DNA from: Lytechinus pictus
Taxonomy: Eukaryota
Direction: 5' to 3'
DNA length: 64,000 nt
NCBI RefSeq assembly: GCF_037042905.1
Contig: NC_087251.1
Coordinates: forward strand, 42,286,001-42,350,000
Shown in pieces: positions 1-64,000 of this stretch. The number at the start of each line of letters is the position of its first letter. Positions within the stretch are counted from its first letter, which is position 1. Under the pieces are notes generated by a model. That model was not told the origin of the DNA. It searched no databases and saw only the letters and a list, made by a program, of their open reading frames with translations. The position numbers and the translations under genes are program-made.

Positions 1-474
1 TGGAAAATTCTGAGTATCCATCTCGCCCTGGAAAGAACATCCTTTGTAAACCCATCTCGAACATGTTCATGGTACGGCTGCACAATCCAGCTGCCGACCA
101 TACCTCAAGAAGTATTCTCCTTAACTGTCGTGGCGTTGGCAAAGAAGAATTCTTCTTGCCAGCCACTGCCACAGTAAGAGAAGACGGAAGCGAAACATGA
201 AATATAACACCCGGTGCCTCAGGGTATATACTTAAATCACTTCACGATCATCCACTTCTGACACAGTATGGAGCGTCGTTTTGGTGCTGATGACCCTTTG
301 GAAATAGCACACAGAAGGATGCATCTCATCTTATAAGTACACCATCAGGGAAGAGTAGAAGCTTCATGCAGCTACTTAACATCACACCTGAAGTCAGGTA
401 AAACGTTCCCTTACACTACTTCTTGTGATGTCAGCCAATCATCGGCGAGTAAAGCTACTATGAATAGACGGCTG

Positions 475-3400
475 CTACTCTGGCAGATCATACAGCCTCC
501 GGGCGTTTGCATTCGCCACAGTGACCACCTCCGCAAAGGTCTCCCCCCTTCTCATGGCTATCTCCTGAGCGAGCTCACCTAAATACATCGGTGTATTCGC
601 CACAAGGGATCGCTCCGGTTTAAAATAAGGAGCGTCCGTTTCCAGAAGCAACCTTTCGATAGGGGTGTCCCTCAGCGCCTCATCCTGGGGGCCAGTGAAT
701 TCTCTCACCTTCCCAGTGAAGCCGAAGTGCGCTTGGGGAAATGCTTCGGACCATGTTCTCCGCTCCTCTTTAACAAGTGTGCAGCAATGGAGGTGAATCC
801 TCTGTTGGCGGGAACAATGTTCAACCAGCAATCGTCGGACATCTCGACTGATAGCAGTAGCACATGGATCCCCGGATGACCCACATAGATGTAGGATTAA
901 CACCTTATTCCCTATGGGCATTCCCAGAATCTGGACCAACATGTTGATCTGCTGCTCCCAAGTCGTGTCCGGGATAGAGAAGTCCAGGCCCAGCTCAGAG
1001 ACACCACAAATCCGCTGGCTGGCCAATAGCGATCGCAGTCTACTCATCGTCTTCATAGTCACATTAGTGGCCTTCTTTGGATGAATACCAACTGCCACCT
1101 TCCAACGGGGGTCCTCTGGATACCAGATTCTTCCCCACCGTTGGGGGTCACAATAGTTAAGTATCCCTCCGGTCACACGCACCGGTTTCAATGGTAACCG
1201 CCCGGGACAAGCTCGAAGAGCAGAAACCCCTCGCATTCCCAGGTATTGCTCCATTCTGTCCAGGTGTAAGTGACTATCAATGACGATTGGAAGTCTATCC
1301 CCCTCATACTCCACCGGTGCTAGGCTAATTCGCCCCGCACGGCTAATGCCTGTCTCGACAGATTCGGATGACCTTGGTCTAACCACAGGAGAAGGTGACG
1401 CAACAGGAGACTCGTCTCTCTGCCATTCACCAACCTGGCCCCGCGGTGTAGCCGATGTAGCAATTGCCCCCTCAGCTCCCAACGGAACCTCTGATACCCC
1501 TGGGGTTATTAACTCGGCAGCCTCAACCTGACTCACTGAAGGAGCCTGGGAGTCCTCGAGTTCCTCAACAGAGATTATCCGAACTACTTCCACCCTCTGG
1601 AAAGACTCGACAACTTCAGTTTGTGTATTAGGCTTGGGCGAGACAGCTCCAAACCTTGGGAAACCTTCGGCCAAACTCAACCTAGGTTTCCGCTCCGGGG
1701 ATGGTTGGGCAATTGTGGGCACTGCCATTCTTTGAGGGAGGAAGTTGCCCAGCCCTCGTAACACAGCAGGCGGCCTCACCACCCCAGAAGTACCTGGTTG
1801 AAACGGAATACCAGCTCTAATGAACCCCTGTTCAAATGCAGAACGATGGAAGCCTAATGACGGGTTAACTAATAACTCCCTCCAATGTTCTTCTGGTGTT
1901 GGGTCTGACAAACCTTGTGCAGACACATCGCCCAATTTAGATCCAGCGGAAGGGAAGTTCATTCGGGAGTTGATAAGCAACTCCTCAGAACATTCACCTG
2001 GCTTTAGATCTGGAACAGGTGACTCACTCTGCACCTCCATGGGAATCTCTGACAACTCCTCAGAGAATGCCTCTACCAACGGAGGAATAGAGCTGGTCTC
2101 ATCTGCAGCATCCGCTTCTTCCGACTTACTCATGGCAGCGTTCGCCTTGTCGGGCCGACTGGCTGTCGCGGAAATCTCATGTGTAACTGGTCTACCAGCT
2201 GCCGCGGGAATCTCTCGCGTATCTGGTCTACCGGCAGCCGCGGGAATCTCACGCGTCTCTTGCCTACCAGCTGCCGCAGGAACTTCGCGTGTATCTGGCC
2301 TACCAGCTGCCGCAGGAACTTCGCGCCGGTCCAGACGAATAGCTGCTTCAGGAACTTCACTTGTGCTTAAGCTTCCCAGCCTCTGTATACGGTCGTGGTC
2401 CTCGCGTCCCAGCCTTCCAACAAGAAAACCCAGGACTCTCCAATGAAGGAGTGCTACCCAGGAACTCAAGGGACGTAGGCCTATTGGGACCGAGCATACC
2501 CAGCCCCGATTCCTCGCAAAGGCGACCATCTCGGCCTGCCCTCGCTGCGCGAGTATCCCCACAGGGTCCGGACGTTCTAGGTCGACAAACCGACACAGAG
2601 CATCCAATGACCTCGTACCGATTAAACAAAGGGAGATCTCCCTCAGCACTTCCTCTCGCAACCCACTAAGCTCCGGGCGAGGATAGACGCTGCCCTTATG
2701 CTCCTGGAAGCACTCCGGCATATGAGAATAAACATGCCATTTCAGCTTCCCAGCGATCGCCCCACAACCTGGTATTAAACAGGGCTTCTTATAATAGCGG
2801 CCCCTCTTTTCCGGTATTTCATGGGTTGGGGCCTCTGAAGGCATGGAGGAAAACCCAGCGTGGGTCTTTCTTCCACCTGCAGGGGGCCCACCGCGGTTAC
2901 GACTGCGGGAGCGGTTCCGCTTCCGGGACTCATCCCTACCCTGATGCGAACCTTGTGTGGTTGGGTGGACATTCCGGTCCGCCCCAACTGAAGACTGCCT
3001 GGGAGCCGGTCCGGGAGGCGGCCCGGCAAATTCGCCCCGCCTTTCCTCTCGAGGACGGCTCACTCTGGCAGCTGAAGCTAGATGCGGACGATCGCCCGGC
3101 CTGGCTTCGGATGTTCCGCTCCGAGTGGAGGCAGTGGGAGTTGGGCCATCACTTTCGCTCTGCCTCGCTCCTGCCGTGCCACTCTGAGTAGACGCATTTG
3201 GAGTTGGGCGAGCATCCTCGCTCTGCCTCCCTCCTGATCTTTCTGTCTGAGTGGGCGAACTAGGAGCCGGTTGGGCACCTTCGCCCTCCCTGGCTGCTGG
3301 CTCACCTCTCTGAGTAGATGCTCCGTAGGTGGAGCGAGCACTTCCGCTCTGCCCGGCACCTGAGCCACTACTCCGTGTAGAAGCTGGGGTCGAGCGAACA

Positions 3401-4212
3401 TCATCGCTCCGCTCAGTTTCTCGCTGATTATTTCTGCTCTGCGGCTGGCCAGAGGTTGGGCGATTGGCATTAGCCTGCCCGCCTTGTGGCTTGTTACCAG
3501 GCGCGGGCCTCTTCTTACGTCTCCCACCACGGGGACGCCTCCCACGCCCAGATTGCCCAGAGCTAGAAGCACCAGTCGGCTGACGGAAAGTCCCGCTGGA
3601 TGCCCTTCCAGCCGGCGGGTTGGCTGGGTGAACTCCACCTTGCCTTCCTGCCGCTGCATTAGCGGAACCTGCCGACTGGCCGCTTGCCGACGCGTTGGGT
3701 GATGCCGGCGGGCGAGGCACTCCACTCCGCCTGCCTGCCGCAACGTCCGCGTATGAGGCCGACTGGCGAAATCCCCCGCCCTGACTGCCTCGCTGGCCGC
3801 GGTTCTGATAGGGCCTGGGAGCCGGAATCTCCTCACCCGGGGTCCAGAACTCCTCGTCCCTATCCGGAGGGATGGACCACGCGTCCATTCCATTTTCAGG
3901 TACGTTGCGGTGCCCCTCAATGTTGGGGACATTTAACAATACCCATTCGCGGTCTTTGAAAGTGGTTCGTAACAACCAATACTGGAGGCAGGTTATCCAC
4001 CTCCAGTCCCTACGCCTGAATGCAAAGCCATGTTGCTTTACGGCCAAGCATTCAAACGCCATTGGTGACATTTTTGTCGCCGAACGGCACACAAATGAAG
4101 GGTGGAGCAAAATGCCCGCATCTGTGGCCCCCCACACCCTTCTCCTCACTTGCTCCTCGTAATCTTCTCCCTCCTCCTCCGCACGTCTAGGTCGTCTTGG
4201 CCATCGGGGCAT
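475..4212 (-). CDS. Retrotransposon ORF3 (1245 aa): long R/S/G/Q-rich disordered region, C2H2-like zinc motif, 12-aa repeats, C-terminal TatD-family DNase domain (~478-1290)
   Basis: TatD motifs IDSHLHLD, VGIHP, SELGLD, ILHL, IHLHC, FGFTG, LLLETDAPY, NARRLY; motif CLIPGC-x9-HVYSH at ~2720-2781. Confidence 0.9.
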   Translation of the reverse strand: MPRWPRRPRRAEEEGEDYEEQVRRRVWGATDAGILLHPSFVCRSATKMSPMAFECLAVKQHGFAFRRRDWRWITCLQYWLLRTTFKDREWVLLNVPNIEGHRNVPENGMDAWSIPPDRDEEFWTPGEEIPAPRPYQNRGQRGSQGGGFRQSASYADVAAGRRSGVPRPPASPNASASGQSAGSANAAAGRQGGVHPANPPAGRASSGTFRQPTGASSSGQSGRGRRPRGGRRKKRPAPGNKPQGGQANANRPTSGQPQSRNNQRETERSDDVRSTPASTRSSGSGAGQSGSARSTYGASTQRGEPAAREGEGAQPAPSSPTQTERSGGRQSEDARPTPNASTQSGTAGARQSESDGPTPTASTRSGTSEARPGDRPHLASAARVSRPREERRGEFAGPPPGPAPRQSSVGADRNVHPTTQGSHQGRDESRKRNRSRSRNRGGPPAGGRKTHAGFSSMPSEAPTHEIPEKRGRYYKKPCLIPGCGAIAGKLKWHVYSHMPECFQEHKGSVYPRPELSGLREEVLREISLCLIGTRSLDALCRFVDLERPDPVGILAQRGQAEMVAFARNRGWVCSVPIGLRPLSSWVALLHWRVLGFLVGRLGREDHDRIQRLGSLSTSEVPEAAIRLDRREVPAAAGRPDTREVPAAAGRQETREIPAAAGRPDTREIPAAAGRPVTHEISATASRPDKANAAMSKSEEADAADETSSIPPLVEAFSEELSEIPMEVQSESPVPDLKPGECSEELLINSRMNFPSAGSKLGDVSAQGLSDPTPEEHWRELLVNPSLGFHRSAFEQGFIRAGIPFQPGTSGVVRPPAVLRGLGNFLPQRMAVPTIAQPSPERKPRLSLAEGFPRFGAVSPKPNTQTEVVESFQRVEVVRIISVEELEDSQAPSVSQVEAAELITPGVSEVPLGAEGAIATSATPRGQVGEWQRDESPVASPSPVVRPRSSESVETGISRAGRISLAPVEYEGDRLPIVIDSHLHLDRMEQYLGMRGVSALRACPGRLPLKPVRVTGGILNYCDPQRWGRIWYPEDPRWKVAVGIHPKKATNVTMKTMSRLRSLLASQRICGVSELGLDFSIPDTTWEQQINMLVQILGMPIGNKVLILHLCGSSGDPCATAISRDVRRLLVEHCSRQQRIHLHCCTLVKEERRTWSEAFPQAHFGFTGKVREFTGPQDEALRDTPIERLLLETDAPYFKPERSLVANTPMYLGELAQEIAMRRGETFAEVVTVANANARRLYDLPE
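2160..2360 (-). repeat. About 5 copies of a 36-bp coding tandem repeat in ORF3 (REV/IPAAAGRPDT)
   Basis: Repeats visible in both the DNA and the translation. Confidence 0.85.
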
Positions 4213-4220
4213 CTTCGGAT

Positions 4221-4248
4221 CTGAAATACAAACAGAGGGGAAAACACC
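4221..4248 (-). promoter_or_regulatory. 3' splice acceptor just upstream of the ORF3 ATG
   Basis: Minus strand reads GGTGTTTTCCCCTCTGTTTGTATTTCAG|ATCCGAAGATG; the ATG at 4212 is 8 nt into the exon. Confidence 0.65.
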
Positions 4249-4356
4249 ATTAGAATTTGGAAATAACTTCCCTCTGTCTTATCTCCCAGACCCCATAAAT
4301 AATATACCAAGACCCACATGTCCATTAGAGGTTCTTGAGAAAAGGAGTGGATTTCC

Positions 4357-7300
4357 CTAGGTCCTAGATGCGCATCCCGGACAATGGTATTCTTCATCCA
4401 ACCCCAGCATCTCGCCTTCCTCTTCGGACATTCCCACGCACTGACCGTGGAACCATTCTTCGCATTTATCACACTGGATCATAAATTTTCCTCCCCAGGG
4501 CTTCCTGCAAAGGCAATACACCTCCTCGTGCCTGTGCTTCTTCCCTTTCTTATTCGGAGGAATAGTCCGATCTCTGCATGGTTTCATGCGGTCATGGTTC
4601 ACCGTCATCCTAACATTCTTATACTCGACCCGGTACAGGAATGGAGACAGTCTCTCCACAATCAATGCAGGACCTTTCCAGGGAGGGCAAAGTTTCTTGC
4701 ACTTCCCTTTGGATTGAGCCGTGTCCAACAAGTATACTCGTTCACCTACCTCATACTTCCTCTGGAACACTTTCATGTCATAGTCCTTTTTCTGTCTTTT
4801 TTGGGTCTCTTTTAGATGAGACCTGGCCAGCGAGTGTACATCGGCTAATGTCTTACGCAGATTCGCACAGTACTCCTCGCTTTCTACTGGTTGTGCTGCT
4901 TGCGGCATCGGGAACAGTAAGTCCACCGGTTGGGTCACTTCCCTTCCAAGCATTAGCCGGTTGGGAGTAAATCCGGTGCTTCTATTCACTGTTGATCGTA
5001 TGGCCCCTGCGATTTGAGGAACAAACTCGTCCCAACTTCGCTGGTTCTTGCCTACGAAACAACGCACTGCATCCATCAGCGTCCGGTTAAATCGCTCCAC
5101 CTGACCATTGGCCGAAGGACGATAAGCCGTTGTTCTCGCCTTATGTATTTGCAACATCTTACACATGCTTGTAAACAAACGACTCTCGAAATTACGGCCT
5201 TGGTCGGTGAAGACCTGCAGGGGACACCCGAAACGGCTGAAGAAATGGTCCACCGCTGCTCGGGCTGTCACTTCTGCGGTCTGTGAAGGCAAAGGTATGC
5301 ACTCCACCCATTTCGTGAATTGATCAACCATTACCAGGATATTCTCGTTCCCATTCGCCGTTTTTGGCAGGGGACCCAAGAAATCCAAGTGCACCCTTTC
5401 CATGGGGTAGCCAGCATGATAGCTGATCATAGGGTTCCTCCCGTGTCTGGCAGACTTCTTGCATTGGTTACAGGTTGGACATTTGCGGATAAAGTCACTC
5501 ACATCCTTCCCCATACCATACCAGAAGAACCGCCTCTTCATCTTGGAGATCACCCTTACATTGCCAGCATGCCCTGCCAAGGGCAAATCATGGTTAAGTC
5601 TAACCAATTCTTCCCTCATAGAGTGAGGAATGAGAAGTAAATCCCCTTCGCCCTTGTTCTGGTAAATTACCCCATTTTCCAGGTGAAATGTATCCTTGTT
5701 GATCCACAGGTTCTTCTGCTCGGGACTCCATAACATCATAGTTCCCTCGCTAGGTTCTTCACCTGTGGCCAACCATTCCCGTAATGGAAGAAATTCTGGA
5801 TCTTTGTCTTGTTCTTCTTTCAATCTCACGGCTGGGGGTGTTTCTGGCTCCTCGACCACCTGGGAGATATTCAGTTCCTCGGTGATCGGTCTGGAGCTCT
5901 CAACTACCTCGTCCGACCGTAAATCCGATCTCACGGCCGGGGGTGTTTCTGGCTCTTCGACCGCCTGGGAGATATTCTGTTCCTCGGCGATCAGCCTTGA
6001 GCTCTCAACTACCTCTTCCGACCGTAGATCAGGGTCCGATTTCACCACCATGTGGGTTGTCCAAAACCCTGACTCAAGGTTTTGGCCAATGGTGTTTTTC
6101 CGTTCTCCTGTGACTGATGCCAAGGGAACTACGTCATCCACCTCTTCTACAAAAGGAGCCCAGTTCCGGTGAGCCTTCTCACAGTAGGGGCACCCACCAC
6201 AAGGAAGATCTTCTAACTTGAATCCTAGCCGGAATTCTTCGCAGAAGAGCTCAGTGTCAGGAACTCGAGACAATGCGTCCGCATTCCCATGCTGTTTCCC
6301 CGGGCGGTGTATCACCTTCATCTGATACTGACTTAGTTCTTCCAACCATCGGGCTATTTGCCCTTGAGGATGTTTGAAGTTCATCAGCCAGATGAGACTA
6401 CTGTGATCTGTGCGCACCAAAAACGAGTTACCTAAAAGGTAGTGGCGGTACTGCCGTGTGAACTTCACCACTGCTAGGAGTTCTCTCCTTGTCACACAGT
6501 ACCTTCTCTGTTCGGGAGACAGTGATATGCTTCCGTAGGCCACTACTCTCTCTTGTCCATCCTGAACCTGGAGTAACTCCGCGCCGATAGCCTCATTCGA
6601 AGCATCGGTGTCCAGGATGAATGGATCCTGCAAGTTGGGCATGGTCAACACTGGGGCTGAGGTAAGCAGCTCCTTTATAGAGTCAAACGCCTCCTGTTGT
6701 TCAGGTCCCCAGCAGAACATGTTTTTCCCAGTGATCTTGTACAGAGGAACAGCCGCCGCTGCATAATTCTTGATGAAGGTCCTGTGATAGTTCACTAACC
6801 CCAAGAATCTCTCCACTTGTTTCGTGTTGCGCGGCGCTGGCCAATTCCTCACTGCTTCAATCTGATCTGGTTTCAGAGAGATCTTGTTTTCTCCTACATT
6901 CCGGCCCAGGAACTCTACCTCGCGCCGGAACAATTCACACTTCTTTGGTTTCAGCTTCAACTTGAAGCTTCTAAACCTTTCTAAGACCTCCCTCAAGTTA
7001 TTCATGTGATCCTCAAAAGACTTTCCCAGAACTACTACATCATCGAGGAATGCTAGGACTATGTCCCAATTCAAACCTCTTAAGATTAAGTCCATGGCTC
7101 GTGAGAAAGTCGCGGGAGCGTTGCACAATCCAAAACCCATCCTCACAAATTCGTACAATCCGTACTTTGTGGTGAAAGCAGTCTTCTTGCGATCCTCTTC
7201 CGCTATTTGGACTTGCCAATACGCAGAGTTCGCATCCAGCTTGGAAAACCAACGCGTCCCGGAAAGGGTATCCAGACACTCCTCGATATTCGGGAGGGGA

Positions 7301-8592
7301 TATACATCTTTCTGAGTGATCTGATTGAGTCCTCGGTAATCTACACACCAGCGGACTCCCCCATCTCTCTTCCGTACCAGTACAGGTGCAGACGCCCACT
7401 CCGATTGTGAAGGCTGAATAACCCCAGCCTCCTTCATTCGTTTCAGCACTGCCTTTTCTTCTTCTGCGAAACGCATCGGCGTTCTTCGCATCTTGTGCTT
7501 TACTGGGGCTGATGTACCTGTCTCTATCTTGTGCTCAATAGCTGTAAATTCTCCTAAGTCGAAGTCGTGACGGGCAAACGCGTCTCCGAACTCCCCCAGG
7601 ATACGCCTAAGTTCAGCTTCCTGTTCAGAGTTCAAGAGTTCCGAAGATCGGTCATACAAATCCTGTAAATGTTCTGGCACCTCTTCCGCCACGTCCTCTG
7701 TTAAGCAGTTGACTTTAGGTTCCAGCTCTTGAGGCGCCGAATGTGACCTGGTTTCCTCATCTCTTTCTGGAAGAGAAGATGGCACCTGAGCCACAGCCAC
7801 TGCCTCGAAGACCCGGCCTATTATCTTGTTGCCCTCCAGATGGACTACTCTGTCGGTTGGGTTCAAAACATACAGTTGAATGAGCGTACCTCCGTCATGT
7901 AGCGACCTAGGTGCTAGAGCGGGTAATACGGATGATGGCTCAAAAACACAAGCGTTCATCCTCTGGTCTATTACCCCGGTGACACGCTTCAGTGTGTTGG
8001 GTGGGATGGTGGTCCGGTGTGAGGTGCTAACTCTGGCTACTCGTCCACCATTCCGACCAACTCCGAACTTCATGGGTATCCGTTCATCCCCCATAAGCAG
8101 CTCCTTACTACTTATAAGGATATCGATTGAATGCTGCTCAAGAAAATCTAGCCCCAACAGCATGTCATCCGCTATCGATGCTGTGTAAATGTTACCGGGA
8201 AAACACTTTCTTCCAATTCCTACCTCCACTGGGCCGATCACTGCTCCTTGCAAGCGTGTATCTCGGCCAGCGGTGCTCAAAACAACTTCCTTCACCAGGG
8301 GCGGGGCAGGGTCAAGTAGTTTCATCACTCGATCCGAGATAATGGTCACTTCTGCAGCAGAATCTACCACTGCGTCAAGTGTAACGCCATTCACCTTTAC
8401 CTCTACTCTCAGCATCGAGGACGAACGAAGTTGACAGACCACTACCTCCTGCGGAGATTCCAACTCCGGTTCTTCCCATTGGGTAGGGAGGACGTTGCTC
8501 TCTTCTTCACCAGCTGATAATTCTACCTCTGAGGAATGCGGATCCTCGTCTTCCAGTTCCAGTTGGTTTACATATTCCGCTAACACCTTCAT
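4357..8592 (-). CDS. pol: Gypsy Pol polyprotein: aspartic protease, reverse transcriptase, RNase H, integrase, C-terminal PHD finger; probably translated by -1 frameshift from gag (frame open from ~8745)
   Basis: PR AVVDSAAEVT; RT RWCVDYRGLN, KTAFTT, FGLCNAPATF, FLDD; RH ILDTDAS, TDHSSL; IN HDLPLAGH...CPTC, VHLDFLGP, TDQGRNF, NGQVERFN, WKGP; PHD YCLC...MIQCDKCEEWFHGQC...CPGC. Confidence 0.97.
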   Translation of the reverse strand: MKVLAEYVNQLELEDEDPHSSEVELSAGEEESNVLPTQWEEPELESPQEVVVCQLRSSSMLRVEVKVNGVTLDAVVDSAAEVTIISDRVMKLLDPAPPLVKEVVLSTAGRDTRLQGAVIGPVEVGIGRKCFPGNIYTASIADDMLLGLDFLEQHSIDILISSKELLMGDERIPMKFGVGRNGGRVARVSTSHRTTIPPNTLKRVTGVIDQRMNACVFEPSSVLPALAPRSLHDGGTLIQLYVLNPTDRVVHLEGNKIIGRVFEAVAVAQVPSSLPERDEETRSHSAPQELEPKVNCLTEDVAEEVPEHLQDLYDRSSELLNSEQEAELRRILGEFGDAFARHDFDLGEFTAIEHKIETGTSAPVKHKMRRTPMRFAEEEKAVLKRMKEAGVIQPSQSEWASAPVLVRKRDGGVRWCVDYRGLNQITQKDVYPLPNIEECLDTLSGTRWFSKLDANSAYWQVQIAEEDRKKTAFTTKYGLYEFVRMGFGLCNAPATFSRAMDLILRGLNWDIVLAFLDDVVVLGKSFEDHMNNLREVLERFRSFKLKLKPKKCELFRREVEFLGRNVGENKISLKPDQIEAVRNWPAPRNTKQVERFLGLVNYHRTFIKNYAAAAVPLYKITGKNMFCWGPEQQEAFDSIKELLTSAPVLTMPNLQDPFILDTDASNEAIGAELLQVQDGQERVVAYGSISLSPEQRRYCVTRRELLAVVKFTRQYRHYLLGNSFLVRTDHSSLIWLMNFKHPQGQIARWLEELSQYQMKVIHRPGKQHGNADALSRVPDTELFCEEFRLGFKLEDLPCGGCPYCEKAHRNWAPFVEEVDDVVPLASVTGERKNTIGQNLESGFWTTHMVVKSDPDLRSEEVVESSRLIAEEQNISQAVEEPETPPAVRSDLRSDEVVESSRPITEELNISQVVEEPETPPAVRLKEEQDKDPEFLPLREWLATGEEPSEGTMMLWSPEQKNLWINKDTFHLENGVIYQNKGEGDLLLIPHSMREELVRLNHDLPLAGHAGNVRVISKMKRRFFWYGMGKDVSDFIRKCPTCNQCKKSARHGRNPMISYHAGYPMERVHLDFLGPLPKTANGNENILVMVDQFTKWVECIPLPSQTAEVTARAAVDHFFSRFGCPLQVFTDQGRNFESRLFTSMCKMLQIHKARTTAYRPSANGQVERFNRTLMDAVRCFVGKNQRSWDEFVPQIAGAIRSTVNRSTGFTPNRLMLGREVTQPVDLLFPMPQAAQPVESEEYCANLRKTLADVHSLARSHLKETQKRQKKDYDMKVFQRKYEVGERVYLLDTAQSKGKCKKLCPPWKGPALIVERLSPFLYRVEYKNVRMTVNHDRMKPCRDRTIPPNKKGKKHRHEEVYCLCRKPWGGKFMIQCDKCEEWFHGQCVGMSEEEGEMLGLDEEYHCPGCASRT
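5823..6030 (-). repeat. 105-bp (35-aa) in-frame tandem duplication in the RNase H-integrase linker
   Basis: DLRSEEVVESSRLIAEEQNISQAVEEPETPPAVR followed by DLRSDEVVESSRPITEELNISQVVEEPETPPAVR. Confidence 0.9.
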
Positions 8593-8645
8593 AAACTCTG
8601 GAAGACCGGCTACACCTTCCTCAGGTTTGTCTGTAGTTGGGTGAC

Positions 8646-10853
8646 CTATTGTTGCTCGAGCCAGGGTGTGGCCTCCCTCTCCTCCTCTGACTCGCTCGAG
8701 TTTGACGCCTCCTCTTCCCTGAGGACCGAAGCGGAAGCCACGGGGCTTTTATCAGGACAATCTTTCCTAAAATGTCCCGGCTTACCACACTTGAAACAGC
8801 CCTCAGTCCTGGGTGCAGGGGATGGCGATCTCCCTCGTCTTCCTATTTGTGACATTCTTCTATTAAGATTATCCATGGAGGACTGCAGTTTCTCGAATTT
8901 CTCATCCCAATCGGAAACCCTCTCCTCCAAAGCCCGCGTGCGATTATCCAACGCTGACACCAACTTGGTCAAGCTTTCACCCTCTGAAGATATCTTACTC
9001 GAAGTGCCAGGCACTGAGCTGTTCTTCTCCAGCCGGGGTTTATTAGCTGGCGGGGGGGCACCAATCTGTTGGATCACTGCCTCTTCAGATGACCAAGCAT
9101 CTTGTGGCCAATGGACTATCTTGACCTCTGGTCTCCTCTGCCTGCCATACACAACCTTTTTCGAATGTATATACCAAGTCACATGATCCACAGCCTTCTC
9201 AACTGAGTCCGGCCGTAAGTTCAGGGCGTGCAAACCAGCTTCCCGTTCAGAACACCCCTGACAAAACTTCAATACCCCTTGTCTCTGTACTTGAGACTCC
9301 GGAACCCCTGGGAAAGTTTTAACAGCCAGGCTGACCACACGGTCAGCCCACTCCATGATTCCTTCCTCAGCCAGCTGGTGCGCCCGCATGAACTCCATTT
9401 GAGCTACCTCTAGAGGATCATCCGCGCCAAACCGGCGCTCCATCCTCCTCACCAGATCTTCAAAAGACATGTCTCTGTCACGCGACATCAGTAATGAGAA
9501 ATAGTCACTTCCAATACCTTTCATGCACCACCACATCTGATATTTCCTTTGAATGGAGGACCAGCCCTGCTCATCCGCATAGGCCATGAACTTGAGGTAA
9601 AACCCTCTCCAGCTCCCTCGACCATCATAGTTAATGGTCTTGGGGAGCGAACCCATGTGGCTCAATGACTGTGAACCCATTTGCCTGGAGCGGCCAGTAG
9701 TCTTGTGTGTAGAGATATTCCCCGAAGACTGGCTAGTGGTGGGGCTCTGGGGTAGCTGATGTGTTGCGGCCTGGTGCGGCTGGAACGCCCTTGACTGTGG
9801 TGGTGCCGGCTGGCAAGCTGTTGTTTGGACTTGCATCTGATTAGTCTGTGCATGTCGAGATGATGGGACTTGTGATACCGGCGTTGTTGTCATCTGATAG
9901 GATCCAACCGCTGCCGGTTGCACTGGCGGTGCCGCCTGCGGCTGCGGCAGTGGAGCCGCTGGTAGCTGTGGCGGCGCCTGTGGCGGTACCTGTGACGTTG
10001 CGGGCGCCTGCGCGCACCTCAGCGGTACACGCGTATACCATACAGTAGGCATGCGCGGCACTGGGGCCGCTGTTACTCTTGGCGGAGGGCCAGCCGATAA
10101 CTGCGGCGGTGGACCCACTGGGTCTACAAGAGGTTGGGTCGTCGCACTTTGTGGTGATTCTGTCGCTAACAGCTGGGCCGGTGGAACCAATGGGGCTCGT
10201 GGTGTTGCCGGCACTGTGGGTGGGCCAGATAGCCGCCTGACTGAAACATCATACTCCGACAAGTTGGGACCTGGTCTGGTCTGATGTAAGATCTGATGGG
10301 GTTCTTGGCCCCCAGTGCCTGGTTGTGAAGTTGGAGCTTGCACCCTTTCCAGCTGGGCTGGGCGTAAGACCTGCTGTGAGGGATTAACTTGCAACCCCTC
10401 CTGTAAAACTCTACCACCAAAGCCTGGGTGGGACTCTGACTGCCACCACCTCTCGGATACTCCTGGAGGGGGCGGATACCTCTGCCACCGATAAAATGCT
10501 GGGCTAACCTCCTGCACCGGGCTGGGTGCATGGGAAGACTGAAACAACTCTCCATCCGCTCCTATAGGTTCACCCATGATACCTCTATCATGATCCAGCA
10601 ACCCTTGTGCAAGCCCAGTAGACTGTTGTGATGCCGTACTAAAGGGCGTGAAGTCAAGCTGATCCAAAACCTCTTCCGGCAATGAAACCAATGACGAGAA
10701 ATAATCCCTTGTGATACCACCTTTACGTTCCAACAGCAAGCCTGCCACAGCATGACTTACTCCTGGAATGCCCACGAGTTCGTCATATGAACACTCGTTC
10801 ACCGGAAGTGGGCCTTCAATAACCTCAAAAGGGCTTACTATATCTGACAACAT
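8646..10853 (-). CDS. gag: Gag-like protein (735 aa): N-terminal HhH-like motif, P/Q-rich linker, capsid-like core, coiled coil, CCHC zinc knuckle
   Basis: YDGRGSWRGFYLKF-type Gag core; CFKCGKPGHFRKDC knuckle; lies directly upstream of pol. Confidence 0.92.
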   Translation of the reverse strand: MLSDIVSPFEVIEGPLPVNECSYDELVGIPGVSHAVAGLLLERKGGITRDYFSSLVSLPEEVLDQLDFTPFSTASQQSTGLAQGLLDHDRGIMGEPIGADGELFQSSHAPSPVQEVSPAFYRWQRYPPPPGVSERWWQSESHPGFGGRVLQEGLQVNPSQQVLRPAQLERVQAPTSQPGTGGQEPHQILHQTRPGPNLSEYDVSVRRLSGPPTVPATPRAPLVPPAQLLATESPQSATTQPLVDPVGPPPQLSAGPPPRVTAAPVPRMPTVWYTRVPLRCAQAPATSQVPPQAPPQLPAAPLPQPQAAPPVQPAAVGSYQMTTTPVSQVPSSRHAQTNQMQVQTTACQPAPPQSRAFQPHQAATHQLPQSPTTSQSSGNISTHKTTGRSRQMGSQSLSHMGSLPKTINYDGRGSWRGFYLKFMAYADEQGWSSIQRKYQMWWCMKGIGSDYFSLLMSRDRDMSFEDLVRRMERRFGADDPLEVAQMEFMRAHQLAEEGIMEWADRVVSLAVKTFPGVPESQVQRQGVLKFCQGCSEREAGLHALNLRPDSVEKAVDHVTWYIHSKKVVYGRQRRPEVKIVHWPQDAWSSEEAVIQQIGAPPPANKPRLEKNSSVPGTSSKISSEGESLTKLVSALDNRTRALEERVSDWDEKFEKLQSSMDNLNRRMSQIGRRGRSPSPAPRTEGCFKCGKPGHFRKDCPDKSPVASASVLREEEASNSSESEEEREATPWLEQQ

Positions 10854-11083
10854 GATGTATCAATTAAAAATAACAACTTTCCAAAACACAAAATTACCTT
10901 AAAACCCAATTGGGTAACACCCCACTCCCCGTCAAACAAAAAGGCGAACCACCGGGGTGAGAAAAAACCCTAAAGACAGAAATCAGCACCTGCAAAGAAA
11001 AATATACCAACGCTTAGTCGGCCTAAACTAACAAGTACCAACTCTTCGGTGGTCTAAGAAAAAAACGAAGTCCAAACACAGCA

Positions 11084-11538
11084 GAATTAATCTCTAAATG
11101 TAGTAGAAAAAATAATCCAGGAAAGGTGTCCCTTTAAGTTCAGAAAACACAAGAATTAATTTCTAGATGTAGAAAAAATAATTCGAGAAAGGTGTCCCTT
11201 TAACTTCAAAAGACCCACGAATTAATATCTAGATGTAGAAAAAATAATTCGAAAAAGGTGTCCCTTTAACTTCAGAAAACCCCCGAATTAATATCTAAAT
11301 GTAGAAAAAATAATTCAGGAAAGGTGTCCCGTTAAGTTTAGAAAACACAAGAATTAATTTCTAAATGCAGAAAAATAATTCTAAAACGGTGTCCCTTTAA
11401 CTTCAAAAGACCCACGAATTAATATCTAGATGTAGAAAAAATAATTCGAGAAAGGTGTCCCTTTAACTTCAAAAGACCCACGAATTAATATCTAGATGTA
11501 GAAAAAATAATTCGAAAAAGATGTCCCTTTAACTTCAA
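11084..11538. repeat. Leader tandem array A: 7 units of ~66 bp
   Basis: Unit GAATTAATWTCTAGATGTAGAAAAAATAATTCGARAAAGGTGTCCCTTTAACTTCA... starts at ~11084, 11153, 11219, 11285, 11351, 11416, 11482. Confidence 0.93.
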
Positions 11539-11746
11539 ACACCAAAGTCAAATGCTAGATTCTGAAGAAGAATTCAAGATCACGTAAAGGACCCTAGCCC
11601 GGTAAGCTAGGAAAGTGTGCATCAAACGTCCAAGTCAAGAAGGTAACAGAACCTTGTAGCTCTAATTGTAGTCCAAATGTAAACACACCAGAAAAATAAA
11701 TACTAACACCTATCGTTAGTCTAAAAAAATATAACAACAACAGGGG

Positions 11747-12355
11747 GACTAAGACGGGAGACTTATCCCTTTAATCCAAAATTAATCCTTATAACAGTCA
11801 CAAATAATCCGGAAATAACTAGACTAAACGGGGAGACTTATCCCTTTAATCTAAAAATATTTTTGTAAAGAGCCAAAAAATATTTTTATACCGCTAAACT
11901 AAACAGGGAGACTTATCCCTTTAATCCAGAAATATTTTTGTAAAGAGCCAAAAAATATTGTATACAGCTAGACCAAACAGGGAGACTTATCCCTTTATTC
12001 TAGAAATATGGTTGCAGAAAGCTGAAAAATATTTTATTACAGCTAAACTAAAGAGGGAGACTTATCCCTTTAATCTCAAAATATTTTTGTAAAGAGCCAA
12101 AAAATATTTTATACAGCTAAACTGAACAGGGAGACTTATCCCTTTAATCTAGAAAATATTTTTGTAAAGAGCCAATAAATATTTTATAACAGCTATACTA
12201 AAGAGGGAGACTTATCCCTTTAATCTCAAAATAGTTTTGTAAAAAGCTGAAAAATATTTTATCACAGCTAAACTAAAGAGGGAGACTTATCCCTTTAATC
12301 CACAGATATTTTTGTAAAAAATAATGTGAGTCAGGAACTATGTCCCTTTAATCCA
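11747..12355. repeat. Leader tandem array B: 8 units of ~75 bp plus a partial unit
   Basis: Core GGGAGACTTATCCCTTTA recurs at ~11756, 11831, 11906, 11980, 12055, 12130, 12205, 12280. Confidence 0.93.
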
Positions 12356-13125
12356 ACTCAGCGTATCACGCAAATATCTAGAAATAAGATAGACGAATAG
12401 GTCTCAGCGGAAAGTCTACCCCTGTTCTTACAAACAAGATATAAAATAAAATATAAAAGAAATCAAAAACTAGCCTAGAATATGTAGCACAGCCCAACTA
12501 GGAACTGCAACTACTCCGTCACTCTGACAGATCGATGCAGGCGCCAGACACACTCTCACTGCTAGATCTATGAAAACGCTATCGGTATGACGACAGGCAC
12601 ACTCTCACTGTTCGGGTCGGTCAAAACGAAACGATAGTGCTATACGCCGCAGGTCACAACGAAACGATATTGCTAGACGCCTTAAACGATACCCACACTC
12701 TACACGGCAGATCGTAAGCTCCGTGCCCAATGTGACCGCTGCGATACCAAAACGATATCCAAAGCCAACGGAAAATCCCCAAAACGCACGTGGAGAAATA
12801 TTCACCTCGAGATGGTTGCGAGGGAGCGCGATAGATAATTGAACAACTTGAGCAAGTTCAATCACCACTCGAAAAGTTTGCAAATCACTAAAACGTGAAT
12901 CTAAATAACACACAACACAAGCTCAGCACCCTGCAAAATATCACAAGCTCAGCCCCGGAAAGTTAACAGTCCCACTGTCACCCTCTCCCCCGCCAACGCA
13001 AGCAAATTTCACCCCGTACTGACGCATGTGCGATAGACACAATAAATCACTGCTGACCGCCACCGAGCAAGCAGCGGGCAGCTATAGGCCTAGCAGTCAC
13101 CACGACTCCGCAAACGCGATTCGCA

Positions 13126-13140
13126 CTGCTGACTACGCCA
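13126..13140 (-). promoter_or_regulatory. Primer binding site complementary to the tRNA-Ser 3' end
   Basis: Minus strand TGGCGTAGTCAGCAG, 1 nt inside the LTR end; the usual tRNA-Ser PBS is TGGCGTAGTCGGCAG. Confidence 0.88.
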
Positions 13141-13141
13141 A

Positions 13142-13570
13142 TGTTGTTCGAGTGCTCAGTTCGAACAATCTTAAAAGTGGAAATGTACTGCACAAAAGAC
13201 GAAATACATGCATCACATATATTCAGTCAAAAGTATATTGACTCACCGTAAGTTCTGTCCCACGATGAATCCAGTAGAACAACTGAACAGGTAGAAAACA
13301 GCAATATAACTCAGCAATAACAACAGTATAACTTCTCAATAGGTTGGTTCCAGTACATCTCTCAGCAGTATCCAAAGATGGCGATGCCGTCCGCATCCTC
13401 CATCACGGGGTGTCGAATCCCTGCTTCTGATTGGTCACCTCTGGTGAAGTTGCACGCGGCACTACATCTTGGCTTGCCATGAGGTCTCCAGCAGCAGACG
13501 ACGATGGTAGCAGACGACAAGGATCAGTAGCTGAAAACGCCAAATCGGCCTGGCCGTTTTCACTACAACA
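13142..13570 (-). repeat. 5' LTR (429 bp)
   Basis: Inverted ends TGTTGT...ACAACA abut the PBS; contains a CCAAT box (minus, ~13430), a YY1-like CGCCATCTT (minus, ~13375-13383) and a GTGAGT donor (minus, 13241-13246). Confidence 0.85.
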
Positions 13571-16500
13571 TGTACGAGTATGACTGTCAGTGGACCAAGG
13601 AGTCGGACTAGATCTAGATCTACTCTCGGTCAATAATGGCAATGAAGTCTTAGCCAGGAATAAAAGTCATAGTCAGACATCAAAAATTTCTAAACCGATT
13701 TTAGGGTTTAGAACCGAAGCTTTACTTTCTAGGTCTAGATAGATCGAGAGTCCATCTTTAGTCTAGATCTAGACCTAATTTAGATACATGAATGCTGTCG
13801 CACAGCATTGAGTCTCGTTGGACTAGATCTATACTTTCTTACAAATAGATCTAGACCTAGTGCATGAGATTATGAAATTATGTTAAAATCTAATGAAATA
13901 AGATTCGGAAATAAAAAGATCCAGATTTTTTTTTTTTTTGGGGGGGGGGGGGGCAGACATGTGAAAAAATTTAGAGAAACCTAGAATTCAGAAAGCGAGG
14001 GCCAGAAGCGACCAATATTACCTAGGGCCGTTTTGTGCATTTTCTAAAGTAAAATTGAAGGATGTCATGCAATTCTCTTTTTGATGAAGGTTTTCACATT
14101 TCTGATTTCAGCTCTTACCCAAACCCCTCCCCCTATACATACGGCCATGAAAAAGATCACTTCTTATTATTGTTCTCTCTCTTTCACAAACAGGTTGAGT
14201 TTGAAGAACAAGAAAAACAGTAGAGGTCTATATATGGTTCAAGATGATGATCATAAGTGCATGCATCATTTTGCAGATTCTCATCCAGGTATAAAACTTA
14301 AACTAACCCATACAAAATTACAGATACATTGCATGCATTGAATGTTAACCATGTTTACATTAAATAAAAATAATCTGAGCTACAAAGAGGTAGGATCTGT
14401 AATGAATATACACTTCTTAAATATACAGGCTCTCGAGTCTAAAATAGAACCAATGCCAAAAGTTATGTACCTTGGACAAATTTATAAAATAAGGTCATGT
14501 CCTTGATCTACTAGTAATTAAATGGCCTTTTTATTTCCTATTTGTTTATAAACAAAGTGTAGGGATTGATTTTGTACTTATATTTCTTTCCACTCTTATC
14601 CAGGAATCATCCCCTTTTTCTAATAGAACATCCCTCATTTATATTCACCCTTTTCATCCTAACTTCCTATTCTTCATGTATAGCTCTCTCTTACACATTA
14701 ACTGCTGTACACTCCGTACACAAGGTTCTTTGGTATCAATTCACTCCACCATCCTTCATACAGCTTTCTTCACTCCTCTCTCTCTCTCTCACTCTCCTTC
14801 CTTGGTTATAATGTTAAGTTGATGCACTCAAGCTTAGATAATAATTTGCATATAGTTTGAATGGTCAATATATATCCTTTGTTTGTATATTTGAATATTC
14901 AGTTATACTTTGTTAATTGATTTACATTTATATGAATATTGATGTGCCTTAATTAATTTGCATGGAATGTTACAAAGAATGCAACAAGGCTTTGAGTCAT
15001 TAAAATCTGGGAGTTGGCCAGTAAGTTATCAACCTGACAACATGTCTGCTGGGCTGCCTCTGTGTTAAGAGTACTAGAAATGAGATATTGTCAGAACCCC
15101 GTACTACACAAAGCAATATTTATTTTTCATATTTTACAAAATTCATTTTATGCATTCTTTAGTGTGATATTCATATTTCATATTTGTAGATTTACGATTT
15201 TTTTTAAATCTTGTTATTTTACATTTTGTCCAATAGGATGATGCAGTTTTACAATTTCCATGGAGGTGATTGATGATGATAAACAATTGGTGAAGTAGGC
15301 CTAATAGAACAGTGATAGGACCACAAAGAGAAATACAACCTACAGCAGTTATATGAGTGAGTTAATAAGTGATTATTTTTAATAATGGGGGGTTTTCACA
15401 ATATTTTTAGGCAACAAATAGACCTGCCTTTGAAAAAAACATTTCAATTCTGTTTTTAGGTTATAGATAGGTGTCGTTTTTATTCGCAGATCAAAATATT
15501 CTGTGCAACAAAACATCATCTTTAATTCTGACTATTATATATAATTTATATATGTTAATTCATATATTCATATTTATGGGAAATCTCTGACATTTTTTTT
15601 ATATAGTACATGTAGTTATAATGGAGAGTGGTATGCAAACTGCATAGAACAGGTTTAAGTGATATGCTTTGTAGAAGTACAAGTTTATAATTAGTAGAAG
15701 TAAGATTTCCTATGTTATGTGATGAAGAAATTTATATACCGGTATGTATAGTCTTACTTTTCTTAAAACATTTATGTTTTACAAATCATGACAATTTTAA
15801 TTTAAATTCATTGATTTTCTTTCTCTATTTTTTCAATCTGCAGGACTGGTGTAACAGATGTTTTCATTCAAGAAACCCAACAAATTGAAGAGTGACTTAG
15901 CTTAGGAAGCACTTGATAAAGATGGAAAAGGTTTTTTTTTTTCAAGTCCAATTTTTTTTTTTTAAATTATCATCACAACCCCAAATTCATGAAGTATGAA
16001 ATTTCCTGTCGATTTTCATTAAAACTGGTTGCAAAAGGAAAAGCTATAAACATACAAATAGGAGCGGCGAAGTGAAGTTGAAAGTGGGGGGGGGGGCACA
16101 GGGAAAATGCTGTATTATGTGAAATTTTAAAGAAGTTGCGAGAGAGCAAAATTTTGACATTTTAAAAAAGAAAATCCAATTTTGTGATAGATTTCGACAA
16201 AATATTCAGAATGATATATTTCACCCTTTTTTTTTGGGGGGGGGGCAAGAGTCCTTCAGGCCCCCCCCCCCCTCCATCTGTAGTGTACGAAACTGCTTAT
16301 CTACCCCCACTCACATGAATTATTAAACTTAATGCACAAAGGATTTCCTTATTGTTTTCTTGTTTCAAAGGGCACTCGTCATTCTTTAGGAGCACTTTTC
16401 TTGGATAAATGGGGGCAGTTATTCGAGAAAGGGCACTTACAAGAAGGCGAGGGGGTACTTTTTAACACTTAAAACGGGCCCTCAGATGAAAGGGCACAGA

Positions 16501-47396: not shown

Positions 47397-64000
<16,604 letters not shown>

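Follow-up and report, generated by a model that had tools for sequence, protein, structure and literature searches.

The window (the whole 64,000-nt stretch of DNA analyzed here) holds the larger part of a Ty3/Gypsy LTR retrotransposon of 14.8 kb, which lies on the minus strand and has three open ORFs and a pair of LTRs of 426 bp each. On balance, we favor the explanation that it is an intact, recent member of a Ty3/Gypsy clade whose third ORF encodes a nuclease, likely TATDN2-derived and made from a spliced message, that likely clears RNA–DNA hybrids in trans. The features of the element are:

13568..13571, minus strand: TSD ATGT, 4 bp; the second copy lies beyond the 3' LTR
13142..13567, minus strand: 5' LTR, 426 bp, TG...CA, same sequence as the 3' LTR outside the window
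13244..13246, minus strand: splice donor within the LTR; exon end 13246, intron GT from 13245; seen in contigs of runs X2 and X3
13126..13140, minus strand: PBS, 15-nt complement of the 3' end of host tRNA-Ser(AGA)
11084..12318, minus strand: two tandem arrays within the ORF3 intron, in the leader of 2.3 kb; repeat units of 66 bp (x6.6) and 75 bp (x6.7)
8646..10853, minus strand: gag, 735 aa; HhH, P/Q-rich linker, capsid-like region, CCHC knuckle
10650..10802, minus strand: HhH of ComEA/EEPD1 type at the Gag N-terminus, by profile comparison
8657..8706, minus strand: predicted -1 frameshift signal; slippery-like GTCAAAC (8706-8700) and conserved hairpin (8694-8657)
4357..8748, minus strand: pol frame; protease, RT, RNase H, integrase (H2C2, rve, p58-C), PHD
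4369..4518, minus strand: PHD finger of DIDO/PHF2/BPTF type at the pol C-terminus, by Pfam and PDB profile match
4221..4245, minus strand: polypyrimidine tract and AG acceptor, 8 nt upstream of the ORF3 ATG
475..4212, minus strand: ORF3, 1245 aa; conserved N-terminal helical domain, low-complexity linker, basic stretch, zinc-finger/helical domain, linker, TatD
2370..2790, minus strand: C2H2-like finger and helical domain of no known family; confident model, pLDDT 85, pTM 0.81
478..1284, minus strand: TatD nuclease domain, group II (HxH); full metal-ligand set, with Cys replacing the usual Arg after the third His
1..474, minus strand: 3' UTR; the polypurine tract and 3' LTR, up to which it runs, lie outside the window

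The original prediction described a young element with three uninterrupted ORFs, extending from 475 to 13570. All three ORFs are open: gag from its ATG at 10853 to a stop at 8646, pol from 8748 to 4357 (1463 codons) in the -1 frame with a gag/pol overlap of 103 nt, and ORF3 from an ATG at 4212 to a stop at 475. Youth is borne out by the LTRs, which have TG...CA termini and are identical (426/426 nt), and by the flanking TSD ATGT; TSDs of 4 bp were also found at all 7 of 7 near-identical copies. The predicted extent needs correcting: the 5' LTR is at 13567-13142, and position 475 is only the ORF3 stop. The element continues past position 1 of the window for ~1.25 kb, and its 3' LTR lies at G000:C7:42284750-42285175, ahead of which a purine run forms the polypurine tract. 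The LTR, PBS (13140-13126, pairing over 15 nt with host tRNA-Ser(AGA)), frameshift overlap and splice signals that had been predicted were all located, and the donor–acceptor joint was seen in contigs of two runs.

By Pfam, the domain order is PR-RT-RH-IN and gag carries a CCHC knuckle. Hallmarks of several named groups are absent. Troyka elements have 3-bp TSDs, whereas those seen here are 4 bp. Pfam gave no chromodomain match at the integrase C-terminus, as would be expected of a chromovirus, and the PHD occupies that position; in place of an errantivirus envelope glycoprotein, ORF3 encodes a zinc finger (ZnF) plus TatD. Finally, the integrase follows RNase H, whereas the Gmr1 clade is described as having the integrase upstream of RT (PMC8220671).

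Phylogenetic analysis supports a distinct lineage, as predicted. In a 33-row RT+RH tree, module-bearing elements form a single clade of 14 rows (support 100/100) on a branch of 0.85. TatD lies ≤8 kb downstream in 24 of 32 RT matches at ≥66% identity, while none of 20 outgroup loci has any of the three modules (HhH, PHD, TatD); by Pfam, PHD is absent from 12 of 12 outgroup integrase ends and HhH from 7 of 7 outgroup Gags. Co-occurrence of the modules in related elements is further documented by an independent contig, L227, which nests within the clade and is complete, with HhH-Gag, a -1 overlap with TTTAAAC, Pol-PHD, acceptor and ZnF-TatD. The TatD and RT trees agree in their main groupings, which fits a single capture. 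These data support a distinct Ty3/Gypsy clade relative to the outgroup elements examined. TatD homologues occur in echinoderms (sea urchins, starfish), a hemichordate and molluscs; in the named molluscs, the homology is that of the TatD. A scan of viral contigs with the RT gave no match. As for prior description, PHD fingers in retrotransposons are already known, but neither the TatD/HhH/PHD combination nor any TatD or HhH in an LTR retrotransposon was found in the papers searched. Named Gypsy clades (MolGy1-16, CsRN1, Mag, Osvaldo, LGF) are described by RT/RH/IN only in the accessible text of PMC6238403 and PMC8220671.

ORF3 is expressed from a message of its own. In contigs of runs X2 and X3 (two samples of a single study, library kind not on record), the LTR donor at 13246/13245 is joined exactly to the acceptor at 4221/4220, with GT..AG borders and 0 mismatches across 4.1-4.2 kb. 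We considered a spliced retrocopy in the genome as the source of this joint and rejected it, since none of the near-identical LTRs in G000, among the scored candidates, breaks off at the donor. Thus, ORF3 has an env-like spliced message, as the exact junction shows. A pyrimidine tract and AG lie just 5' of most of the 14 ORF3 starts inspected. Raw RNA reads from runs X6-X8 numbered 5, 5 and 8 in ~6% of each run, too few to inform. Overall, we have high confidence both that the lineage is distinct and that ORF3 is expressed from the spliced message.

According to the original prediction, each ORF had gained a non-canonical module. This holds for PHD and TatD, which pass the Pfam cut-off with E 3e-8 and E 5e-30, respectively; the HhH of this copy falls below it (E 0.014) but is clear in relatives. 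An HhH family match was obtained for seven of eight Gag N-termini of the lineage, four of them over the Pfam cut-off, and the motif xN...eL..lPGxG...A..I is present. The lineage HhH profile matches EEPD1 (E 7e-11), its best solved match, and ComEA (E 6e-7). The slippery heptamer of this copy, GTCAAAC, is atypical; five of eight relatives have a canonical heptamer at the equivalent position. The hairpin 3' of the slippery site shows compensatory changes among relatives, and the -1 overlap is also kept.

For the PHD, the closest PDB match is the DIDO PHD (E 1.5e-18). It has C4HC3 ligands and cage residues, of which Met and Trp are invariant and Tyr is present in 9 of 10. In PHD fingers, these cage residues (Tyr, Met, Trp) have a role in H3K4me3 reading. 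The idea that the integrase reads promoter chromatin is a prediction from PHD type. In an indirect test on the insertion sites, CpG density and CpG o/e of the flanks did not differ from those of outgroup elements (27 versus 23 flanks, p 0.85-0.99). Given this null comparison with other Gypsy elements, we rejected flank CpG as a basis for inferring promoter targeting. CTAG is enriched in the insertion flanks, a post hoc observation.

The TatD domain has the N-terminal HxH and the E, H, H and E/D metal ligands by which group II is defined (PMC10085689), and the ligands are retained in 26-30 of 30 sequences. For TatD, dN/dS ranges over 0.07-0.26 in three diverged pairs; the value for the ZnF domain is 0.09. 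One out-of-frame integrase row and one control row were left out of the set. TatD is under purifying selection, and an active nuclease is quite probable. The zinc finger is a conserved C-x4-C...H-x3-H-like motif, for which the Pfam search gave no match. With the model of the ZnF domain, Foldseek found nothing at E≤0.001, the best VIA-align Z was 4.0 and Atlas gave nothing >0.76; such absence of matches to a predicted structure does not prove a new fold.

Several observations link the element TatD to TATDN2. The aromatic residue of [FY]CxP is found in 29 of 30 element-type, 7 of 7 TATDN2 and 0 of 24 bacterial rows, and 27 of 30 element-type rows score higher on the TATDN2 profile than on a 7-row bacterial profile. 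By these signatures, the element TatD appears most to resemble host TATDN2 and is likely derived from it. Additional shared traits are the group II HxH, IHxH and a long low-complexity N-terminus (TATDN2 as described in PMC10711561 and PMC12709183). In contrast to the host protein, the ORF3 TatD is intronless, element-borne and in a clade of its own. In an unrooted three-group TatD tree, built without TATDN1 and TATDN3, the element clade is separate from host TATDN2 and no closer to it than to bacterial group II. The outgroup comprised 24 of the 80 bacterial-type TatDs from a metagenome scan with the TatD alignment, which returned only this type, at 27-35% identity. The host also has a TATDN2-like gene of its own, which contains introns and is located away from the element (G000:C3:58226445-58232988). 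Matches in a tick, in Lymnaea and three others were rejected as element-borne because they cluster with host TATDN2. TATDN2 degrades R-loop RNA, reportedly leaving the DNA of R-loops uncut, and also cleaves hairpin RNA (PMC10711561); it protects primordial germ cells (PMC12709183). Hence the 'DNA processing' first ascribed to the TatD may instead be RNA processing, the nuclease being closest to TATDN2 in its signature motifs.

We propose the following scheme. Unspliced RNA would yield Gag and, via the -1 frameshift, Gag-Pol; the Gag HhH would bind nascent cDNA, probably without sequence preference; and the integrase PHD is predicted to read H3K4me3, biasing insertion toward active chromatin. 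ORF3, with basic stretches ahead of its zinc-finger domain, is probably nuclear, where it would likely act in trans and strip RNA from RNA–DNA hybrids. By clearing R-loops or trimming 3' ends, both where copies of the element are transcribed and at fresh insertion sites, it would keep the element expressed and the germ cell viable. The R-loop role itself is tentative. Joint action of the three modules, as had been envisaged, is hypothetical. ORF3 is on a separate spliced RNA, one family has HhH and PHD with TatD absent from its usual place, and some families have lost the zinc finger. Moreover, the C1 copy, gag-pol without ORF3, is a recent insertion (identical LTRs, TSD), which indicates that ORF3 is dispensable in cis.

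Other roles for ORF3 can be envisioned. DNA 3' exonuclease and AP endonuclease activities are described for TATDN1, TATDN3 and E. coli TatDs (PMC10085689), and an enzyme of this repair type might, with HhH and PHD as in the original prediction, trim cDNA ends or process the gapped integration intermediate. All three captured modules are DNA- or chromatin-related and mostly inherited together, and EEPD1, the solved structure that the HhH profile matches best, is itself a nuclease. We nonetheless regard this as unlikely, as the signature motifs point to TATDN2, the reported cutter of RNA rather than DNA in R-loops (PMC10711561), ORF3 lies outside Gag-Pol, and ORF3-less copies have inserted with clean TSDs. 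Scarcely less likely is a regulator of silencing or RNA export, which would degrade or shield structured RNA, or help the unspliced genome leave the nucleus like CERV of Cer1. Gene position and spliced expression are as for CERV (PMC10309623), the DEDDy exonucleases of bdelloid ORF3s have been discussed in similar terms (PMC5408684), and the hairpin cleavage by TATDN2 (PMC10711561) would fit; in addition, the spliced message was detected while pol contigs of identical sequence are scarce. Against this, ORF3 has no similarity to CERV, and a pure adaptor would have no need of the strong conservation seen in its catalytic residues.

Other Gypsy lineages have independently captured additional RNase H domains, and a hybrid-directed RNase of TATDN2 type would suit a second RNase H-like activity in the particle during reverse transcription. 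This is improbable, however, given that Pol retains a canonical RNase H with its acidic residues and that ORF3, at 1245 aa, is a protein apart from Pol for which no way into the particle is evident. That ORF3 is neutral cargo, a functionless retrocopied host gene, might be suggested by its loss from some copies and one family. Selection and expression contradict this, making it scarcely tenable: dN/dS is far below 1, the ZnF+TatD layout is kept in 142 of 149 long homologues, and a dedicated splice acceptor is in use.

Parts of this arrangement have counterparts elsewhere. Bdelloid Vesta/Juno elements (PMC5408684) are likewise Gypsy-type, with a catalytically intact nuclease of predicted function in the env position; as they are described there, the fold is DEDDy rather than a TatD amidohydrolase and gains were repeated and family-specific, whereas here the capture looks single and old, and a novel zinc-finger domain is fused, alongside HhH-Gag and PHD-integrase. 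Errantiviruses and retroviruses share a third ORF after pol and a spliced env-like mRNA from an LTR donor, but the product here is a nuclease and no envelope protein. C. elegans CERV (PMC10309623) is likewise a non-env protein encoded where env would be and translated from a spliced mRNA, and it probably acts in trans in the nucleus; it is unrelated in sequence and is an RNA-export factor, and the helix-hairpin-helix reported for it is a zipper-containing domain of CERV itself. Chromoviruses, CopiaMBD (PMC6673714), Chlamydomonas Gypsy-7a_cRei (PMC9940879) and Ginger1-9_HM (PMC2836005) have a chromatin reader at or near the integrase, proposed to steer insertion. In the case here, the Gypsy clade is one of animals and the reader is a DIDO-like PHD that ends the integrase, with an active mark as predicted target; TatD and HhH-Gag are not reported in the accessible accounts of those elements.

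A broader view, offered as a possibility short of probable, is that an ancient Gypsy clade of echinoderms, hemichordates and molluscs captured the host R-loop nuclease TATDN2, expresses it where other elements have env, as a nuclear enzyme that clears hybrids in trans, pairs it with an H3K4me3-reading integrase, and has repeatedly given the gene back to hosts, in which it became domesticated as 'TATDN2-like' genes. The lineage would account for the multi-copy intronless 'TATDN2/YcfH-like' genes listed in many marine-invertebrate genomes, and for such proteins in some symbiont MAG records. Two candidate domestications also emerge from the analysis, as does a conserved zinc-finger/helical domain that belongs to no known family. 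With this clade, it could be tested in an animal whether a predicted reader of an active mark targets the integrase, the reverse of the chromovirus case. If our interpretation is correct, a captured TATDN2-type nuclease with an env-like spliced message would represent a new class of accessory gene for LTR retrotransposons, making it directly testable whether retroelements handle R-loops or integration damage with an enzyme of their own.

The original prediction described an intact element with three uninterrupted open reading frames, and all three proved open on the minus strand:

10853 (ATG) to 8646, minus strand: gag, open frame
8748 to 4357, minus strand: pol, open frame, -1 relative to gag
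4212 (ATG) to 475, minus strand: ORF3, open frame
13567-13142, minus strand: 5' LTR, 426 nt
~0.8-1.25 kb before the window start, minus strand: 3' LTR, outside the window

In pol, Pfam searches identified protease, RT, RNase H and integrase, with a PHD at the C-terminus (E 3e-8); gag has a CCHC knuckle and ORF3 a TatD domain (E 5e-30). The PBS has a 15-nt match to host tRNA-Ser(AGA). The LTRs are identical (426/426 nt) and ATGT flanks the element on both sides; hence the element spans 14.8 kb and is very young. A near-identical LTR occurs at seven loci in the L. pictus genome. ORF3 is present at only two of these (on contigs C7, the window copy, and C17), which differ by 12 amino acids in 1267, while the other five comprise one gag-pol copy without ORF3 and four non-autonomous Gag-protease derivatives.

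The non-autonomous partners (L013/L014, L017, L018, L019 and L020/L021, on C5, C8, C3, C16 and C3, respectively) share the LTR and 3' UTR of the window element and are flanked by TSDs. They encode gag, protease and just the first ~57 RT residues, followed by a tandemly amplified copy of a post-protease motif. In the four whose LTRs are near-identical to those of the window element, the two LTRs of each copy differ by 0-1 substitutions (a 2-nt indel in one). L011/L012 (C1:7637849-7650046) is a recent recombinant, with gag-pol-PHD intact and a non-autonomous 3' part in place of ORF3. The C3 copy and the window copy (L018 flanks; L008:470-1497) are inserted into members of a single host repeat family, at 79-85% identity. 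Elsewhere in the window, exon-like pieces on the minus strand at 50500-57000 resemble an FBXO11-type host gene, and a long low-complexity repeat occupies 56.1-56.9 kb.

RT matches in the genome fall into two sets, 32 at ≥66% identity and 118 at ≤53%. A TatD match lies within 8 kb downstream at 24 of the 32 close loci, accounting for 33 of 88 genomic TatD matches. The other eight are the ORF3-less recombinant, one partial duplicate in tandem, three copies that are broken or rearranged but retain ORF3 pieces, and three PHD-bearing copies in which no TatD was found. None of the modules was seen at 20 outgroup Gypsy loci chosen to span the 118 distant matches (LTR pairs within 16), and Pfam found PHD in 0/12 outgroup integrase ends and HhH in 0/7 outgroup Gags. 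In a 33-row RT+RH tree, from which two loci lacking a full RT were excluded, the rows that carry the modules fall together in a single clade (14 rows, 100/100). Its main groupings reappear in the TatD trees. A TatD-less family is nested inside the clade, so absence of TatD reflects loss. The whole architecture also occurs, with one stop within ORF3, on L227, a contig from an independent assembly that falls inside the clade. Thus the modules do co-occur in related elements, and their combination defines a distinct Gypsy lineage, as had been proposed.

L227, an animal-type Gypsy element, comes from a bacterial (Sedimenticola) MAG, and several NCBI proteins titled 'MAG TatD family hydrolase' share its layout, which suggests host contamination. 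One clade copy (L092:1-6492, C11) carries gag and pol as a single 2164-codon frame. Two outgroup elements (L069:6499-7422 and L070:6381-7364) have another ORF3, with C2H2 zinc fingers.

The HhH predicted in Gag holds for the lineage, with 7/8 Gags matching an HhH family and four above the Pfam cut-off, but the window copy itself falls below it. Against PDB, the lineage profile matches EEPD1 and ComEA. For the PHD, the nearest solved relatives are those of DIDO, PHF2, PHF8, BPTF and CFP1, known H3K4me3 readers, and the ligands, Met and Trp are invariant across 10 sequences. The integrase PHD would, by prediction, steer insertion to active chromatin, but CpG content did not differ between 27 clade and 23 outgroup insertion flanks. 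In the 5' flanks of these insertions, CTAG is 3-4x denser beside clade elements (3.9 versus 1.0 per kb; p 0.0005, rising to p 0.003 once the window element's family is removed; window background 2.0 per kb), only a lead, as the motif was picked post hoc from the window copy's flank.

ORF3 has a helical domain at its N-terminus, followed by a C2H2-like finger joined to helices, and ends in a group II TatD that keeps all metal ligands. The finger-helical domain is well modeled (pLDDT 85), matched no known family or fold in family and fold searches, and is found in 142/149 homologues with >250 residues N-terminal of TatD. Basic stretches precede the finger. The window element's family has Cys where 28/30 element-type TatDs keep Arg.

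In an unrooted tree, which by itself cannot confirm sisterhood with the host nuclease TATDN2, the element-type TatDs group apart in a clade of their own (30 rows, 100/99). The [FY]CxP and IHxH signatures are common to element-type TatDs and TATDN2 and not to 24 bacterial rows, and 27/30 element-type TatDs prefer the TATDN2 profile. An intron-bearing TATDN2-like host gene lies at C3:58.23 Mb. Homologues occur in echinoids, asteroids, Ptychodera, bivalves and gastropods, in multi-copy clusters (47 members for one Dreissena protein). Gene models fuse integrase, PHD and TatD in Acanthaster, and RT and TatD in Pecten; from protein records we infer TE linkage of the mollusc homologues. Three diverged pairs gave TatD dN/dS of 0.07, 0.23 and 0.26, and the ZnF domain gave 0.09; near-identical pairs gave a noisy ~0.4. 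Stand-alone ORF3-derived genes without pol nearby (L036:1547-3835, L040:1511-3835 and L028:1517-5056, the last with several metal ligands changed) are candidate domestications; Lytechinus variegatus counterparts, 88-90% identical, are annotated TATDN2 and mucin-17-like.

The gag-pol overlap contains AAAC followed by a hairpin. The slippery heptamer, GTCAAAC, is non-canonical in the window copy and canonical in 5/8 relatives. Hairpin pairing holds in 96.8% of cells across nine sequences, with double-sided changes at 4/7 pairs, a supportive rather than independent score, the structure being derived from the same alignment. Contigs from runs X2 and X3 (two samples of one study, library type not on record) match ORF3 without mismatch up to 4221, then continue into 29 LTR letters that stop at the donor; the joint is an exact GT..AG one and takes out 9 kb. 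Among the scored candidates, no LTR match in the genome is cut at the donor point. In three RNA runs (X6-X8), about 6% of each run gave 5, 5 and 8 raw reads, a number too small to be informative. Acceptor-like (10990) and donor-like (10897) sites on the minus strand, just 5' of the gag ATG, could yield a PBS-less gag-pol message, although none was seen in the runs examined.

The retrotransposon cycle itself is established background. ORF3 would be a nuclear, trans-acting nuclease, given that it is expressed from a separate message, that basic stretches lie ahead of the finger, and that copies lacking it inserted cleanly. The likeliest role, if tentatively so, is removal of hybrids from transcribed copies and fresh insertion sites, favoured because the closest host enzyme, TATDN2, degrades R-loop RNA (PMC10711561) and guards primordial germ cells (PMC12709183). 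On rival readings, it may process DNA ends, counter silencing or aid export, or serve as an RNase H within the particle. The proposed joint action of HhH, PHD and TatD is conjectural.

The literature searched, a passage of PMC6962438 included and with Repbase Reports and supplements outside its scope, did not describe TatD in any retroelement. For HhH in LTR retrotransposons, the search gave only CERV (part of PMC10309623) and an unrelated review. PHD precedents include Chlamydomonas Gypsy-7a_cRei (PMC9940879) and Ginger1 (PMC2836005), and PMC6673714 mentions such cases in general terms; nuclease ORF3s are known from bdelloid elements (PMC5408684); and the portions of PMC12440569, PMC6238403 and PMC8220671 contain no such architecture. 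Some of these elements may already have a catalogue entry and a clade name, their domains unremarked. The architecture is real, lineage-defining and apparently undescribed: a Gypsy variant with a captured, expressed and selected nuclease, whose function we infer.
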